DNA from: an uncultured cyanobacterium
Lineage (GTDB): Bacteria; Cyanobacteriota; Cyanobacteriia; Cyanobacteriales; Nostocaceae
Direction: 5' to 3'
Assembly: GCA_963706595.1 (NCBI GenBank)
Contig: OY970166.1
Coordinates: 4,032,001-4,096,000, forward strand
Length of the DNA: 64,000 nucleotides
This document shows positions 8,630 to 13,810 of this stretch, in pieces. A model generated the notes under the pieces. That model saw only the letters and a list, made by a program, of their open reading frames with translations, had not been told where the DNA came from and did not search any database. The translations under genes and the position numbers were made by a program. Within the stretch, counting starts at the first letter, position 1, and each line of letters begins with the position of its first letter.

Positions 8630-11095
8630 ATGTCAGAAGTGCCTACTCAGTGTCAAAATTTATCAGAGCAAGTTGAGTCTATATTACAATTTTTACAGCA
8701 AGAACCATCTTTACGTTCTCAAGATATTACATCTGTACAAACTTCTCTAGGAAAAGTGATTTCTCCAAAGTTTGAAATTGTATTTGCAGGTGCATTTAGT
8801 GCCGGGAAGTCGATGCTAATTAATGCCCTCCTAGAACGGGAGTTGTTATATAGTGCCGAAGGACACGCTACAGGTACGGAATGCAAAATTGAGTATGCGG
8901 AACTAAATAATGAACGGGTGGTTTTAACGTTTTTAAGTGAAGTTGAAATTCGGGAACAAGCTAGTTTTCTGTGTCAACATTTGGGATTTCAAACAGCCGT
9001 TAATATTAATCAAGTTGAAGTAATTAGCCTCTTGCGTCAAGGTTGTGAAACGATTATTCAGCACGAAGGTGGGGAAAGTAAATCGGAACGTGCAAAACAA
9101 GCGAAGGCTTTAATATTGCTGCTGGATGGGTATGAGGCAAACCGTCAACATATTCATACTATGAATAATGCTACATACTCGATGGAGCAATTTAACTTTT
9201 CTAATCTCAAAGAAGCTGCTGGATATGCGCGGCGTGGGAGTAATAGCGCTGTGTTAAAAAGAATTGAATATTACTGTAACCATCCCCTTTTGTCAGATGG
9301 TAATGTGATCATCGACACGCCAGGAATTGATGCACCAGTAGAGAAGGATGCACAGTTAACTTACGACAAGATTCAACATCCAGATACATCGGCGGTGGTG
9401 TGTGTGTTAAAACCTGCTTCTGGTGGTGATATGACGAAGGAAGAAACGGAACTTTTAGAAAAAATGCGAAACAATGCGGGAATACGCGATCGCATCTTCT
9501 ACACCTTCAATCGCATTGACGAAACTTGGTATAATACCCAGTTAAGGCAGCGTTTAGATGATTTAATTAGTCAACAGTTTCGAGATGCGAGTCGGGTTTA
9601 TAAAACCAGTGGTTTACTCGGATTTTACGGTAGTCAGATTAAACGCACTACTGAAATAGATAGATTTGGGTTAGATTCTGTTTTTACAGAGAGTGTTAAA
9701 AGTCTCAATGGCACAGAAGAAACACCGCAATTTATTAATGAGTTTAACCGCTATTGTGTTAATTCTGGCAAACTTTCACATAGACAGTTTCCCATTTCCA
9801 TAAGCAATGCTCAAACTGCCAATCAAAATTATGTGAGAATTTTAAATGAGCATGGAACGCCTTTAATTAATCAGCTAATTCAAGATAGTGGAATTGAGGA
9901 ATTTCGCACAGCTATTACTAAATATTTAGTAGAAGAAAAGCGTCCACAGCTTTTCAAAAATCTGGCTGATGATTTGGAAGATATTTGCATTAAATTAAAA
10001 AAACATTATCAGGGTGAACAAAGGAATTTAGATAGTCAACCGCGAGAAATTGAGGCGATGAAGGCGCAAGAGTTACAACGCCTGAATCAGCAGCTACAGC
10101 AAGTTGGTAAAGATTTTAGCCAGCATATTGCAGAAGAAGTCAACCAAATAATTAATAATTCCTGTGATGCTTTTGAATCAGATTTTCGACAACTACAATC
10201 ACGGATGATTCGGCGTTTAGATGAATTGCTAGATACCTTTTCTGTGGCTGATGCTTATCGACGTTCTACTATTAGTCATCCCCGAAATGCAACTGCACCT
10301 TTACTAGCTATTTTAGTCGAGGCATTTTATTATTTAGCAAATCAATTAGAAGATATCTTGATAGATTCTTCTCAACAATTAGTTGCTAATTTGTTTCAGC
10401 GATTAATGGATAAAATTCGCAAGTCAGAATACTATCGTCAATTATATCGGTTGTTAGGTAATGATGGCGGCATTGAAAAAGAGGTAAAAATTTTAGAAAA
10501 ATCAGTATCTTTAGCGTTAGTAAGTGCAGCTAGTATAGAATGCGATCGCTTCGTCAGAGAAAGTCCTAGATTTTATGATGAAGGCACGTTTTCTATATAT
10601 CAATTTCGCCAAACTTTGCTGCAAACTTCCCAAGGTTACGATTCTGAAAGCATAGTAGAAGCTGAACCAGCAATTAGACAATTGTTAAAGTTAGATTTTG
10701 AACCAAAAGTTTCTCAAACAATCCGTAAAACCTTCCGCCAAACTATCAGCCAAATCCTCAAAAGTCAGTTATTACCTATGGCGGAACAGCAAGCAGATGA
10801 TATTTTGCAGCAGTACCCCCAAGCGCGGGCTTATTTAGAGCAAAGTCTGCAACAAGAAGCTGAGGAAAAAATTCTGAATAATCGCCGCTTATTGAGTGTT
10901 GTTGAACAAAAAATTGCGGCTTATAATTCCGCCGTTTCGCAAATCAATAATTGCTTACAGTCTATGCAGTTATATGATCATTTATTGCCTGAAATTGGCA
11001 ACGAAGATGTTCAACCACTAGTAACTGATGCAGAAGTTGTTGAATTTGCGAATAAAGATACTTTTATTGCTGATGGTTTAGTCAGCAATATATAG
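8630..11095 (+). CDS. Dynamin-like GTPase
   Basis: G1 GAFSAGKS, G2 T, G3 DTPG, G4 NRID, followed by a long helical stalk. Confidence 0.9.
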   Translation: MSEVPTQCQNLSEQVESILQFLQQEPSLRSQDITSVQTSLGKVISPKFEIVFAGAFSAGKSMLINALLERELLYSAEGHATGTECKIEYAELNNERVVLTFLSEVEIREQASFLCQHLGFQTAVNINQVEVISLLRQGCETIIQHEGGESKSERAKQAKALILLLDGYEANRQHIHTMNNATYSMEQFNFSNLKEAAGYARRGSNSAVLKRIEYYCNHPLLSDGNVIIDTPGIDAPVEKDAQLTYDKIQHPDTSAVVCVLKPASGGDMTKEETELLEKMRNNAGIRDRIFYTFNRIDETWYNTQLRQRLDDLISQQFRDASRVYKTSGLLGFYGSQIKRTTEIDRFGLDSVFTESVKSLNGTEETPQFINEFNRYCVNSGKLSHRQFPISISNAQTANQNYVRILNEHGTPLINQLIQDSGIEEFRTAITKYLVEEKRPQLFKNLADDLEDICIKLKKHYQGEQRNLDSQPREIEAMKAQELQRLNQQLQQVGKDFSQHIAEEVNQIINNSCDAFESDFRQLQSRMIRRLDELLDTFSVADAYRRSTISHPRNATAPLLAILVEAFYYLANQLEDILIDSSQQLVANLFQRLMDKIRKSEYYRQLYRLLGNDGGIEKEVKILEKSVSLALVSAASIECDRFVRESPRFYDEGTFSIYQFRQTLLQTSQGYDSESIVEAEPAIRQLLKLDFEPKVSQTIRKTFRQTISQILKSQLLPMAEQQADDILQQYPQARAYLEQSLQQEAEEKILNNRRLLSVVEQKIAAYNSAVSQINNCLQSMQLYDHLLPEIGNEDVQPLVTDAEVVEFANKDTFIADGLVSNI

Positions 11096-11145: not shown

Positions 11146-11178
11146 AGATCCCCGACTTCTTCAAGAAGTCGGGGATCT
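11146..11178. repeat. 33-bp palindromic dispersed repeat, copy 2
   Basis: AGATCCCCGACTTCT-TCA-AGAAGTCGGGGATCT. Confidence 0.9.
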
Positions 11179-11215
11179 AAGCTTCTCGGTTCCGCCACAT
11201 AATCAATCAGGCTAA

Positions 11216-11464
11216 TTGATGAATAAAACGCCGCGAATTCGTATCCCGCCAGAAGTCAGACAATATGTATTTCAAAGAGATAAATACCAATGCCAAAGCT
11301 GCGGTAAAACCAAGTTAGAAACTGACTTGACAATCGATCATATCATCCCCCTAGCCCGTGGCGGTCAAAACGATATGAGCAATTTACACACCCTCTGCTT
11401 GACTTGCAACCAGCAAAAAACCGATAAACTTGACCCTCGATTCCGGCGACATTTTCAGAATTAG
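11216..11464 (+). CDS. Small HNH endonuclease
   Basis: RDKYQCQSCG...TIDHIIPLARGGQNDMSNLHTLCLTCNQQK. Confidence 0.92.
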   Translation: MMNKTPRIRIPPEVRQYVFQRDKYQCQSCGKTKLETDLTIDHIIPLARGGQNDMSNLHTLCLTCNQQKTDKLDPRFRRHFQN

Positions 11465-11634
11465 GAATTTTCCAAAAATAAATTATGCCTTTTTAGTTAA
11501 TTGTGTTACATTAAGTAGCGAGATGTAATACATAGGCTTTGTTATGGTTTGGGTTCTATATACCCGACTGGCGCGCCAACCACTGGATTGACCGTGTAGT
11601 ACAAAGTAACTTGTAACGTCACACCATAAACCCC

Positions 11635-11704
11635 AAAAGTTAGCTCACTGGTAGAGCAATCGAACAAAATCGATTTGTTACAGGTTCGATTCCTGTACTT
11701 TTTA
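11635..11704 (+). ncRNA. tRNA-like RNA with non-canonical anticodon loop
   Basis: Acceptor AAAAGT/ACTTTT; D arm GCTC-ACTGGTA-GAGC; stem ATCGA/TCGAT with 6-nt loop ACAAAA; T arm ACAGG-TTCGATT-CCTGT. Confidence 0.8.
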
Positions 11705-11749
11705 CCCACCCTGAAAAGGTGAAACACACTAACCTGAAAAGGTTACTAG

Positions 11750-12029
11750 AAACTCTGTAATGTAGGCTTACTAGCGCTCATCACTTGTGGTGTTCGGTAG
11801 TAGCAGTAAAGAAGCCAGCGCGAATGTTCTCTCCCTGACTTGAGTCTGTCCCTTCGGTTTTCCTATCCGGAGTTCTGGAACTGGCTAACCGAACGGCATA
11901 TTTGAGCGTTGTTGTCTGTTTCTAGATTACCCTTGGGTAGTTTAGGAATAAGTAGCAGCCTTCTTAATCCAGTTTTGGATGTGAAATTTGCCCGCAACTG
12001 AACTGTAAAAACCTACATTTGCGGAGTTT
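11750..12029 (+). ncRNA. Putative ~280-nt structured RNA
   Basis: Nested stems 11750-66/12012-29, 11773-80/11903-10, 11791-98/11888-95 and 11813-18/11881-86, plus hairpins 11919-48 and 11967-80; ORF-free. G-U pairs favour the + strand. Confidence 0.7.
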
Positions 12030-12103
12030 TAAAATTTAGTGTAGTATGTGTAGTATTGACTCAAAAGTTATCTCCTAATTAAGTTATTGGCACTAATGCC
12101 TGA

Positions 12104-12210
12104 TATAGCGGTTATCAGTTAAGTGAGATACAAGAACCCCACCCCCAACCCCCTCCGGTGCAAGCGAGGAGGAGGCTATGATCTACTTCATTGAAGTGGA
12201 TACCGCCATA
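12104..12210. mobile_element. ~105-bp MITE (TATAGCGGT ends), copy 1
   Basis: Closely matches the reverse complement of 39528-39633. Confidence 0.8.
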
Positions 12211-12223
12211 ACTCATTTTACCT

Positions 12224-13810
12224 ATGTTTTTATTAAACTTTTTTCGTCGGCTAAAACTGCCGAAATTATCTATGAAAATTTCTTTGTGGAAAACTTTTTA
12301 TATCAAGCCTAACGAAATTGGGATTTTGTATCAACGCAGTGATTTTCATAAAATCTTACAACCTGGTACTTACAACTATTTTGGTCCGCACTGGAATGTG
12401 AAAACCTATGATCTCAATCAACCAGAGTCTCAAATTGAGAACTTGGAATTGTTGGTGCGAAATCATAGTGCAGAGTTACAGCCACATCTCTTAGTAGTTA
12501 AAACAGCATTTAATGAAGCGGCTTTAGTTCGCTGTGGTCAAAATTGGGTCAGTGTTGCGCCTAATGAATTACGAGCTTTTTGGCGTGGTTTTATTGAGGT
12601 AGAATCCCATATTTTCAACTTAGATGAAAACTTGGAATTACCTGCGGAATTTGTGCGGCAACTACGGGTAAATACCTTAAATGGCATCAAAAAATTCCAA
12701 ATTTTTGAGTACGAAATTGGTTTGCTGTACGTGCAGAATAACTTTGTGCGCCCCCTAGTAACCGGAGAGTACGCTTTTTGGGCTGTAGATAGAGATGTTT
12801 CAGTGCGGACTCTCAGCCGGATGATTCCAAATCCAGAGTTTCCCTTAGAAGATATCTTGATTTCACAACATCCCGATTTTGTCGCAGCTTATTGCAAAAC
12901 TGTCGAATTACAAAATCAACAAGTTGCGATCGCCCGCTATCAAGGTAAAGTTATTAGTATCCTCGCCCCATGTAGTCGCAAGCTGTTTTGGCGAGATGTA
13001 GAGGTAGAAGTCATTGACATCAGCACCGATGCTAAATTGTCATCTGATTTAGTTGCTGAGTTGGTTGTGGGTTTACCTGAAGCGGTAATTTTGAGCCTCA
13101 ATAGTTTACATATTGCCTACATACCCCCGCAGTATGTGGGACTGTTGTACATCAATCAAGAGTTTCAAACACAACTCCAGTCCGGGAATCATGCTTGGTG
13201 GGTGTTTGGGCGTTCTGTAAACACAGAAATCTTTGACCTCCGCCAACAAACGATGGAAGTATCCGGCCAAGATATTTTATCCAAAGATAAAGTGCCTTTG
13301 CGCCTCAACTTAACTGCTGGCTACCGCATCACCGACCCACTCACAGCCAAAAACCGTTTATCGGATTTAACTAGCTACTTATACAAAGAGTTGCAATTTG
13401 CTTTACGTGGTGCTGTAGGTGAAAAAACCCTAGATACCTTACTAGAAGACAAAGGAGCCATTGATAGCAGTATTTTTGATTACATTCACCAAAAAACCGC
13501 CGACTATGGCATAGAAATAGATTCGGTTGGAGTCAAAGATATCATTCTCCCTGGTGAGATTAAAACGATTTTAGGGAAAGTAGTAGAAGCAGAAAAAATC
13601 GCCCAAGCTAACGTCATCCGTCGTCGTGAAGAAACTGCTGCTACCCGCAGTATGTTAAATACTGCCAAAGTAATGGAAGATAACCCCGTAGCATTGCGTT
13701 TAAAGGAGTTAGAAGTATTAGAACGAATTGCTGAGAAAATTGAGAAAATCCAAGTCAATGGAAGTTTAGATAGTATTTTGACCGACTTAGTGCGGATGAA
13801 TCGCGATTAA
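12224..13810 (+). CDS. Slipin/SPFH (band-7) protein with N-terminal beta-repeats
   Basis: C-terminal SPFH (EVSGQDILSKDKVPLRLN...VKDIILPGE...RREETAATRSMLNTAKVMEDNPVALRLKELE) and repeated N-terminal modules. An alternative start is at 12272. Confidence 0.9.
   Translation: MFLLNFFRRLKLPKLSMKISLWKTFYIKPNEIGILYQRSDFHKILQPGTYNYFGPHWNVKTYDLNQPESQIENLELLVRNHSAELQPHLLVVKTAFNEAALVRCGQNWVSVAPNELRAFWRGFIEVESHIFNLDENLELPAEFVRQLRVNTLNGIKKFQIFEYEIGLLYVQNNFVRPLVTGEYAFWAVDRDVSVRTLSRMIPNPEFPLEDILISQHPDFVAAYCKTVELQNQQVAIARYQGKVISILAPCSRKLFWRDVEVEVIDISTDAKLSSDLVAELVVGLPEAVILSLNSLHIAYIPPQYVGLLYINQEFQTQLQSGNHAWWVFGRSVNTEIFDLRQQTMEVSGQDILSKDKVPLRLNLTAGYRITDPLTAKNRLSDLTSYLYKELQFALRGAVGEKTLDTLLEDKGAIDSSIFDYIHQKTADYGIEIDSVGVKDIILPGEIKTILGKVVEAEKIAQANVIRRREETAATRSMLNTAKVMEDNPVALRLKELEVLERIAEKIEKIQVNGSLDSILTDLVRMNRD

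Follow-up and report, generated by a model that had tools for sequence, protein, structure and literature searches.

A 64,000-nucleotide (nt) stretch from the genome of an uncultured cyanobacterium of the Nostocaceae (GenBank assembly GCA_963706595.1, contig OY970166.1, positions 4,032,001 to 4,096,000, forward strand; hereafter the window, in whose numbering all positions are given) raises the question of what a folded RNA of about 280 nt, placed ahead of a gene for an SPFH/Band 7 protein, is and does. A first-pass annotation, made from the letters alone, had described an unassigned RNA of several nested stems at 11750-12029, and both the sequence and the coordinates match that description. 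Large, strongly conserved bacterial RNAs of unassigned function are rare, and past ones have proved to act as ribozymes, as scaffolds or in regulating central processes. We found that the structured RNA at 11750-12029 on the plus strand is real, that it folds, is strongly conserved among filamentous cyanobacteria and had not been described before, and that its transcription unit is gained and lost together with the SPFH gene. The RNA and its parts are as follows.

11750-12029, plus strand: structured RNA of 280-285 nt, the main finding, seen in folding, covariation, an nhmmer match of 319.8 bits and contigs from RNA libraries
11750-11766 with 12012-12029, plus strand: closing stem P1, 17 base pairs (bp)
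11770-11801, plus strand: hairpin P2
Irregular helix of conserved sequence, plus strand, in which GCCCGCAACTGAACTG (below) is one of the two strands
11844-11901, plus strand: domain containing the hairpin 11866-11879
11919-11948, plus strand: 13-bp hairpin
11963-11973, plus strand: invariant stretch CTTAATCCAGT
11990-12005, plus strand: invariant stretch GCCCGCAACTGAACTG

The folding of 11750-12029 was compared with that of 200 dinucleotide-preserving shuffles. The plus strand reached a minimum free energy of -97.9 kcal/mol, against -72.5 +/- 4.4 kcal/mol for the shuffles (z -5.82), and none of the 200 was as stable; the minus strand gave a z of -2.66, with three shuffles as good. RNAalifold applied to 10 sequences predicted 84 pairs, 17 of them with compensatory changes. 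A larger alignment was built from 34 homologues selected for sharing the 5' hairpin, its consensus structure was computed, and the pairs were then counted. The consensus comprised 101 pairs in 11 helices, and 92.8% of cells could pair, against 32.8-41.2% in slid controls, in which the 3' partners were shifted by 1-3 columns. Changes on both sides affected 42 pairs (17-26 in the slid controls) and 139 cells (33-47), and 0 of 500 shuffles attained any of five pairing measures. The claim of the first-pass annotation that selection acts on the RNA is thus borne out by compensatory changes. Some G-U pairs are invariant (column pair 113/182, for example, is GU in 34 of 34 sequences), which, together with the strand asymmetry of folding, identifies the plus strand as the RNA strand.

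Not every helix drawn by hand in that annotation fared equally well. In the 34-homologue alignment, double changes were found in 6 of the 17 pairs of the closing stem, in 4 of the 5 pairs of the hairpin TCCGG-AGTT-CTGGA and in 6 of the 10 counted pairs of the 13-bp hairpin at 11919-11948. The three inner long-range stems did not survive the comparison: the bases of AGCGCTCA/TGAGCGTT and of TGTTCGGT/ACCGAACG pair otherwise in homologues, as do those of AGCCAG/CTGGCT, where AGCCAG.GC instead pairs with GCCCGC. In the same alignment TTCGG pairs locally with CCGAA, TTGAG pairs with CTTAA, and the local hairpin at 11770-11801 (ACTAGCG with CGGTAGT) showed double changes in 10 of 13 pairs. The suggested ATCCA/TGGAT hairpin was retained in part, a pairing of 3-4 bp, UCC(A)/(U)GGA, being possible by eye, but the consensus pairs its bases elsewhere. 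The irregular helix is made of two highly conserved strands, CAGT.AAG.AGCCAG.GC and GCCCGCAACTGAACTG. The 5' hairpin is wholly absent in an Oscillatoriales subtype, which is usual behaviour for a modular RNA. Because several stretches of 11-16 bases, such as those with CTTAATCCAGT and GCCCGC, are invariant or nearly so across Nostocales and Oscillatoriales, the sequence suggests tertiary contacts or binding sites. As a side observation, the loop of the 13-bp hairpin (11932-11935) reads CTTG in the window and in locus L010, CAAG in L009 and L011, and CCAG in L012; CTTG and CAAG being reverse complements, small inversions of the loop across the palindromic stem are suggested.

The RNA proved to be widespread among filamentous cyanobacteria. 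BLAST against 40 related genomes located the region at 88-93% identity in 4 of the 10 congeneric genomes other than the window's own, and at 67-80% in several further genera of the family. A motif scan for two invariant stretches combined, covering one genome for each of 185,579 species, returned 68 loci, assigned by record title to Nostocales (Nostoc, Calothrix, Scytonema, Tolypothrix, Nodularia, Anabaena, Chlorogloeopsis and Stigonema), to Oscillatoriales (Microcoleus, Kamptonema, Tychonema, Crinalium, Argonema and Aerosakkonema), to one Leptolyngbyaceae genome and to one record titled only 'uncultured bacterium'; the named records closest to the window are Nodularia and 'Anabaena sp. CCY 0017'. 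In all, the RNA is conserved in more than 70 loci of Nostocales and Oscillatoriales. A collection of viral contigs gave 0 matches to the RNA motif.

The RNA had been placed outside RNase P, tmRNA, SRP, 6S and group I/II introns, and the Rfam searches agree. With Rfam 15, no family overlapped 11750-12029 when the whole window was searched at the gathering threshold, so the RNA is still unassigned. At E values up to 10, the region 11300-12300 returned only a tRNA-like unit, described below, and three chance-level matches outside the RNA; at E up to 1, nothing was found on the large RNA of 8 distant homologous loci. Nor was the RNA matched by the Rfam 15 models of OLE, GOLLD, ROOL, HEARO and raiA. 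No prior description was found in the literature, bioRxiv supplements and subscription journals being outside the scope of the search. The RNA is not among the non-coding RNAs of Table 3 of the Nodularia CCY9414 transcriptome report (PMC3610870), and the main text of PMC4734099 makes no mention of tRNA or SPFH.

Two known kinds of guide-type RNA were tried and rejected. The tracrRNA of a CRISPR-associated transposon (CAST/Cas12k) was discarded, there being no Rfam match and no cas, tnpB or iscB gene nearby. An omega RNA of the IscB/HEARO kind was considered because a gene for a small HNH endonuclease lies upstream, at 11216-11464; again there was no Rfam match and no iscB nearby, and the HNH gene occurs only at Nodularia-type loci. 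That gene (82 aa, HNH_5, plus strand) stands directly upstream of the RNA unit in those loci and scores 62.5 bits with an IscB-type HNH model whose cut-off is 175.

While its structured RNA held up, the first-pass annotation overlooked the longer unit to which the RNA belongs, comprising a leader and a pseudo-tRNA, and the tie to the downstream SPFH gene. Alignment of the flanks and profile searches at all loci revealed a constant order on one strand: an element of ~120 nt, 1-3 tRNA-like units, two hairpins and the 285-nt RNA. In the window, the parts ahead of the RNA are the following.

11501-11535, plus strand: promoter-like region, TTGTGT ... TGTAATAC, a cross-genus block in 67 non-redundant sequences
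11541-11603, plus strand: structured leader of ~65 nt, with two hairpins and a short closing stem; 121.9 bits with the nhmmer profile of the upstream element
11634-11704, plus strand: pseudo-tRNA; the cloverleaf is complete, its anticodon loop has 6 nt (ACAAAA) and its 1-72 pair is mismatched
11707-11745, plus strand: two small hairpins, CACC-CTGAAAA-GGTG and TAACC-TGAAAA-GGTTA, read from the sequence

The ~120-nt conserved element thus consists of the promoter-like block and a transcribed part of ~65 nt. The block at 11501-11535 may provide the -35 and -10 boxes, and a consensus promoter scan found no plus-strand site there. In the leader, RNAalifold on 57 sequences detected compensatory pairs (for example CG 24/UA 18/UG 11, GC 40/AU 11 and UA 50/CG 7); a duplex of the leader with the large RNA was predicted at -48 kcal/mol, and we do not claim that the two pair. 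The small hairpins have counterparts in the alignment of other genera (ACCC-TGTCC-GGGT and CTACC-N-GGTAG).

The tRNA-like unit at 11634-11704 matched the tRNA model RF00005 at 48.3 bits (gathering score 29), and so has a cloverleaf by that model. It lacks a seven-base anticodon loop with a readable triplet; ARAGORN made no call on it at default settings and reported tRNA-??? (caaa) at a relaxed threshold. With relaxed settings, ARAGORN found 135 cloverleaves in 66 of the 72 modules when run on their 72 distinct spacers, and the remaining 6 spacers still held a cloverleaf, in which a closed 9-bp stem capped by a 3-nt loop forms the anticodon arm. Among the 'anticodons' reported, CAT was the commonest, and sense, stop, two-base and four-base forms all occurred. 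At 8 distant loci, the cloverleaves matched the Rfam tRNA model at 44-69 bits. Since the tRNA shape is preserved throughout, unlike a readable anticodon, we regard these units as pseudo-tRNAs.

Some loci carry further RNA features. The whole RNA unit is tandemly duplicated in L028, L034, L048, L049, L054, L071, L077, L084, L087 and L093/L094, with a period of ~760 bp in Argonema and Aerosakkonema and of 1.7-2 kb elsewhere. In the tandem pairs of L048, L054, L077, L084, L087 and L094, one copy, usually the upstream one, has the cloverleaf with the closed anticodon arm. A group II intron domain (RF00029, 63.2 bits) was matched at L059 3003-3079 (minus strand), directly upstream of the Crinalium cloverleaves, and a Yfr1 small RNA at L100 751-819 (minus strand; 38.5 bits, gathering score 38), ~1.4 kb upstream of a diverged unit in genome G183. 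In Trichodesmium erythraeum IMS101, the most abundant primary transcripts are reported to be RNAs of ~260 nt from 7 tandem repeats of 736-973 bp at ~103.7-110 kb (PMC4143802). Judged by size and layout, that repeat RNA could perhaps be the same kind of unit; 7 tandem matches were found in none of the sampled genomes.

RNA libraries contain the unit. Parts of 11200-12400 were present in 11 metatranscriptome runs from 8 studies, and contigs from 4 of these runs were mapped; such contigs do not reveal transcript ends, strand or level. One contig of 446 nt covers 11547-11992 with 3 differences from the window, a second run yielded contigs 11547-11835 and 11842-11992, and further runs gave a contig at 11688-11952 and a pair at 11654-11804 and 11874-12024, so that the four runs together span 11547-12024. 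Two runs start at the identical base, 11547, downstream of the promoter-like block, a weak hint that the 5' end lies just after it. A contig of 550 nt with a depth of 788 shares just two segments with the window, ~290 nt apart: the T-arm of the pseudo-tRNA and the CTTAATCCAGT region. It is the homologous unit of another organism, with cloverleaf and RNA on one contig. In the four runs, no contig covered the HNH and SPFH coding parts within 11200-12400, which is not indicative of low expression.

The anticodons of the pseudo-tRNAs change in an unusual manner. In the unit next to the RNA, the body and the loop frame C-U-NNN-A-A are kept and the triplet changes fast. The triplets of four Nodularia-type loci are AGA, TCT, CAT and TCC, so that 15 of 18 pairwise site comparisons differ (0.83 per site), the value for four-fold degenerate positions in the adjacent gene being 0.21; the window copy has lost one loop base. 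Across all modules, bodies at least 95% identical (41 pairs) differed at 0.21 of anticodon sites and 0.025 of body sites, and bodies 90-95% identical (71 pairs) at 0.39 and 0.082, respectively. For the Nodularia set, a rough estimate gives at least 6 changes on 3 sites, with ~1-1.5 expected from synonymous divergence (P < 0.01, from a small sample of kin that are not independent). Many Nostoc retain CAT, and some copies have no anticodon loop. Relaxed constraint, diversifying selection or local hypermutation are possible causes, and fast-changing anticodons on a fixed tRNA frame are an evolutionary signal of separate interest.

The genetic partner of the RNA lies immediately beyond it.

12224-13810, plus strand: gene for an SPFH/Band 7 protein (named 'slipin family' or 'SPFH domain' protein in databases), 528 aa

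In nearly every locus, profile searches found leader, cloverleaf or cloverleaves, RNA and SPFH gene in this order on the same strand. Among 41 relatives, a full-length SPFH orthologue and the RNA unit were present in exactly the same 12 genomes, and three genomes with only fragments of the SPFH gene had no RNA; within the genus, 5 of 11 genomes had both and 6 of 11 neither. Among 201 genomes of the order, an SPFH orthologue (at least 54% identity over ~520 aa) was present in 26. Eighteen of these were RNA-positive by BLAST, the gene always being adjacent and co-oriented. Of the other 8, five (G038, G075, G200, G057 and G111) were found by profile search to have leader and RNA, and the last three, with 54-58% protein identity, have cloverleaves and, after them, a diverged RNA that retains the closing stem and motifs that can still be recognised. 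In four genomes that have only 390-aa paralogues, leader, cloverleaf and RNA were absent at the two loci examined. Between Nostocales and Oscillatoriales, the SPFH proteins share 70-85% identity. One in-frame TAA interrupts each of the SPFH orthologues at G020 C1:5449487-5451052, G173 C2:95137-96681 and G051 C7:48281-49822, and these may be decaying copies.

The distance between the RNA and the gene is not fixed. From the RNA end to the start codon it ranges from 88 to 1707 nt, exceeding 500 nt in 14 of 56 loci and falling within 88-115 nt in 8 of 56, and a YdeI/OmdA gene is interposed in 6 distinct loci. The neighbours on both far sides vary, with QueF, MerR, flavin reductase, pyrophosphatase, Uma2 and Fur genes upstream (the small HNH endonuclease in Nodularia) and radical SAM, PemK, TamB, MnhB, Tab2-like, rhomboid and kinase genes downstream (PsiE in the window); since these genes differ among genomes, the conserved cassette is the RNA unit plus the SPFH gene. 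The spacer of the window also holds, at 12100-12175, a repeat of ~47-52 nt with a C-rich run and then its G-rich complement at the end; BLAST found 40 further copies in the window genome and many in genomes of the same genus, and in appearance it is like a miniature inverted-repeat transposable element.

A probable regulatory motif follows the RNA directly.

12040-12056, plus strand: two tandem TGTAGTAT boxes, each with TAGTAT, the only exact matches in the 64-kb window

The conserved arrangement after the RNA is AAAAT, a few bases and then TGTAGTATATGTA... Within 75 nt after the RNA, TGTAGTAT was found exactly in 39 of 72 modules and with at most 1 mismatch in 51 of 72, the figure for windows drawn at random from these loci being 24 of 1440. 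In Anabaena PCC 7120, TGTAGTAT is reported as the site protected by TrcR at the promoter of a silent 26-gene tRNA operon, where it overlaps the -10 box TAGTAT (PMC10272220). By sequence, the boxes at 12040-12056 are likely the TrcR operator and -10 box of an SPFH promoter. According to the same report (PMC10272220), alr0739 was up 72-fold and alr0740, a 'slipin family protein' gene, up 42-fold in a trcR deletion strain, the alr0739 promoter was shifted by TrcR in an electrophoretic mobility shift assay, and chloramphenicol induced both genes along with rtcB, rsgA and two HNH endonuclease genes; the regulon given there includes rtcB, the 26-gene tRNA operon, rsgA and rimK beside alr0739-alr0740, and its authors excluded long non-coding RNAs from their transcriptome analysis. 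The alr0739 product is a YdeI homologue for which the same co-induction, possibly by erythromycin, is described (PMC9938897). We consider alr0740 a likely orthologue of the window SPFH gene because a PCC 7120-type accession is in the cluster, because of the slipin annotation, and because YdeI lies between RNA and SPFH gene in related Nostoc/Anabaena loci. In the Anabaena regulon, HNH endonuclease genes stand beside the tRNA array and beside trcR; the HNH gene of the window has no TGTAGTAT box upstream.

To our knowledge, the SPFH family is so far known only for membrane scaffolds and protease cages. The protein of the window matches Pfam Band_7 (PF01145) at 3.1e-31. Its AlphaFold model, built from a 46-sequence alignment with a predicted local distance difference test (pLDDT) score of 85.9, comprises five alike five-stranded beta units (22-63, 89-132, 155-198, 224-265 and 295-338), an SPFH alpha/beta domain (342-441) and, at 444-505, a long helix. 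Stomatin, prohibitin, HflK/C, erlin, QmcA and flotillin can be aligned to the stretch from the last beta unit through the domain to the helix (Z 13.6-17.4), the SPFH domain of stomatin reaching Z 17.4 with a root-mean-square deviation (rmsd) of 1.8 over 113 residues. Only PDB chains belonging to major vault protein (MVP) align further towards the N terminus, with model residues 78-515 on MVP 322-722 (Z 10.2-11.9, rmsd 8-17). When the N-terminal 284 residues were modelled alone (pLDDT 87.2), their closest match was to HflK/C, prohibitin, erlin and QmcA, in the first beta subdomain of each (Z 5.1-5.8); the MVP repeats R1-R7 reached only Z 3.0, with an rmsd of 6.6. From these matches, we read the model as that of an SPFH protein with a fourfold multiplication of its first subdomain, having an MVP-like layout and not being an MVP family member. 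Hydropathy peaks at 1.6 over 19 residues, with no transmembrane segment; lacking a hydrophobic segment, the protein is apparently soluble, which is unusual among SPFH proteins.

We tentatively favour, as quite possible and short of probable, a model in which a stable RNA, freed by tRNA-processing enzymes, would act in trans with the SPFH protein in a translation-stress response. The locus would be a dedicated non-coding transcription unit with its own promoter, of which the 280-nt fold would be the mature core. The cloverleaves would be built-in cutting signals, recognised by RNase P at their 5' ends and by a tRNA 3'-end nuclease of the RNase Z type at their 3' ends; the cuts would detach the leader and set a defined 5' end of the large RNA, whose two ends the 17-bp closing stem would then shield. 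The stable RNA would work together with the soluble SPFH protein encoded downstream, under a promoter with TrcR boxes. Processing by tRNA enzymes, action in trans and a physical or functional partnership with the protein are what we infer from the arrangement. The spacers of up to 1707 nt, the YdeI/OmdA insertions, the tandem units and the separate promoter-like motif argue for trans rather than cis action, and the adjacency to the SPFH gene together with the TrcR boxes leads us to propose the RNA as scaffold, cargo or regulator of an SPFH-based translation-stress module.

Several observations weigh against this model. In genome G020, the RNA lies ~790 kb from an orthologue that carries an in-frame TAA. 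The promoter of the RNA unit itself has an exact TrcR box in 0 of 72 modules (19 of 72 come within 1 mismatch of TGTATTAC, and 5 of 72 within 1 mismatch of TGTAGTAT), so RNA and protein are perhaps regulated differently. The SPFH protein is mildly acidic, with a net charge of -8, and a Pfam scan recognised no RNA-binding domain in it. In the R-DeeP gradients of unstressed Nostoc PCC 7120, Alr0740 is reported to peak in the light fraction 5 in three controls (20.6-23.4%) and also in one RNase gradient (17.7%), with ~10% in the bottom fraction (PMC11797042); the peak being the same with and without RNase, these gradients give no evident RNase-dependent shift and no dominant large particle in unstressed cells.

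Could the RNA instead be a cis-acting leader, a very long structured 5' region of the SPFH or YdeI-SPFH messenger that senses uncharged tRNA, the state of the ribosome or a metabolite? The RNA is indeed on the same strand and upstream of the gene, the spacers of 88-115 nt would suit such an element, strict co-occurrence would suit a cis element no less than a partner, and the tRNA-like shapes may recall tRNA-sensing leaders. What makes this unlikely in our view is that the RNA has no fixed position, a whole gene being inserted in 6 distinct loci and the spacers being so variable; that tandem RNA units occur without an intervening gene; that a conserved promoter/operator motif separates RNA and gene; and that in G020 the two are far apart. 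In addition, no conserved terminator, anti-terminator or pairing that sequesters the start site was seen, and a Nostoc subgroup lacks the U run that follows the closing stem. To a comparably low degree we credit the idea that the RNA serves other partners in translation stress, as a Y-RNA-like tRNA mimic for RtcB-type repair or decay enzymes or for ribosomes, its adjacency to the SPFH gene reflecting shared history or regulation. The presence of rtcB, the tRNA operon, rsgA and rimK in the Anabaena TrcR regulon (PMC10272220), the obligatory cloverleaves, which suggest contact with tRNA-handling machinery, and the fact that the reported gradients of Alr0740 show no RNase-dependent shift would all accord with it; the co-occurrence with the SPFH gene, however, is complete in both genome samples and includes joint loss within the genus, which exceeds what shared regulation predicts, and no other gene is conserved beside the unit.

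A conflict or defence cassette, in which the pseudo-tRNAs would be baits or decoys for anticodon nucleases of phages or toxins and the SPFH protein the effector, appears very unlikely. Its patchy occurrence within the genus, its variable flanks and a hypervariable triplet on a constant frame are what such a cassette might display, but RNA and protein are highly conserved across orders, as most defence genes are not, PADLOC gave no match for the protein and the viral contigs contained no motif match; moreover, many Nostoc keep CAT, some copies are loopless and the loop of the window copy has 6 nt. Returning to the trans-acting RNA, a more specific form of that model would be a vault-like or Ro/Y-like ribonucleoprotein, in which a barrel or ring of the soluble, repeat-lengthened SPFH protein would join the 285-nt RNA under translational stress, with the pseudo-tRNAs, their triplets diversifying on a conserved loop frame, as baits or sensors for tRNA-directed damage. 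We regard this as rather improbable; if true, bacterial translation quality control would gain a new arm, and SPFH proteins their first particle that contains RNA.

The bacterial Y RNA YrlA (RF02553), partner of the Ro60 homologue Rsr, belongs to an rsr-yrlBA-rtcBA stress operon and has an anticodon arm replaced by a closed stem. The likeness to the present unit lies in a modular non-coding RNA with a tRNA-like domain, sporadic in distribution and placed beside the gene of a ring- or cage-type protein and linked to a stress regulon with RtcB; some cloverleaves here have a closed-stem anticodon arm, as in YrlA. On the other hand, RF02553 matched at 29.2 and 23.5 bits (gathering score 69), on cloverleaves only and at 2 of 8 loci, with none in the window. 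The cloverleaves here are separate and upstream of the 285-nt RNA, whereas that of YrlA is a domain within the RNA; the neighbour is an SPFH and not a TROVE/vWA protein, and the repressor is TrcR, of the RHH family, and not RtcR. No TROVE domain was found by Pfam scan in the genes from 134 to 22695.

tRNA-like elements also punctuate non-coding RNAs elsewhere, as in mascRNA 3' of MALAT1, the tRNA-miRNA units of gammaherpesviruses and the tRNAs of rRNA operons. By analogy, a cloverleaf beside another RNA in one precursor would allow RNase P and RNase Z to set the ends of its neighbour; the present arrangement differs in that 1-3 cloverleaves precede the RNA, that their anticodon loops are freely variable or closed, and that they are kept across two cyanobacterial orders. 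The vault comparison is double-edged as well. The SPFH protein has the MVP order of parts (small beta domains, SPFH-like domain, long helix), and in both cases a soluble SPFH-type protein is associated with a dedicated small RNA gene. Yet only Band_7 and no Vault repeat was matched in Pfam, the repeats number 4 here and 9 in MVP and are nearer to the first beta subdomain of HflK/C, prohibitin, erlin and QmcA, and the Anabaena protein is reported to sediment mainly as a small complex (PMC11797042). True bacterial MVP homologues are described as other proteins (bioRxiv 10.1101/872010).

A parallel within cyanobacteria is the L-array (trn operon) of Anabaena PCC 7120, with which the present locus shares the TGTAGTAT/TAGTAT word, here before the SPFH gene, the placing of tRNA-shaped genes in an accessory locus linked to stress, and an HNH endonuclease nearby (in Nodularia; all8564 beside the L-array). 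The L-array has 26 tRNA genes, of which 23 are reported as detected and aminoacylated (PMC8421152), whereas the loci described here have 1-3 units whose anticodons are arbitrary, nonsense or malformed, and after them a large RNA absent from the L-array. With its invariant stretches, its presence in RNA libraries, its obligatory pseudo-tRNAs and its genetic lock to one SPFH protein, the RNA is tractable; since a likely orthologue of the partner gene belongs to the Anabaena PCC 7120 TrcR regulon, whose analysis left out long non-coding RNAs, the function is testable with existing mutants and inducers.

Two further observations concern the region upstream of the cassette. The gene at 8630-11095 (plus strand) encodes an 821-aa dynamin-family GTPase that PADLOC matched to LeoA and LeoBC, and is a candidate defence-type dynamin. 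Between it and the HNH gene, at 11146-11178, lies a perfect 15-bp inverted repeat with a 3-nt loop and a T run on the minus strand, which is terminator-like.

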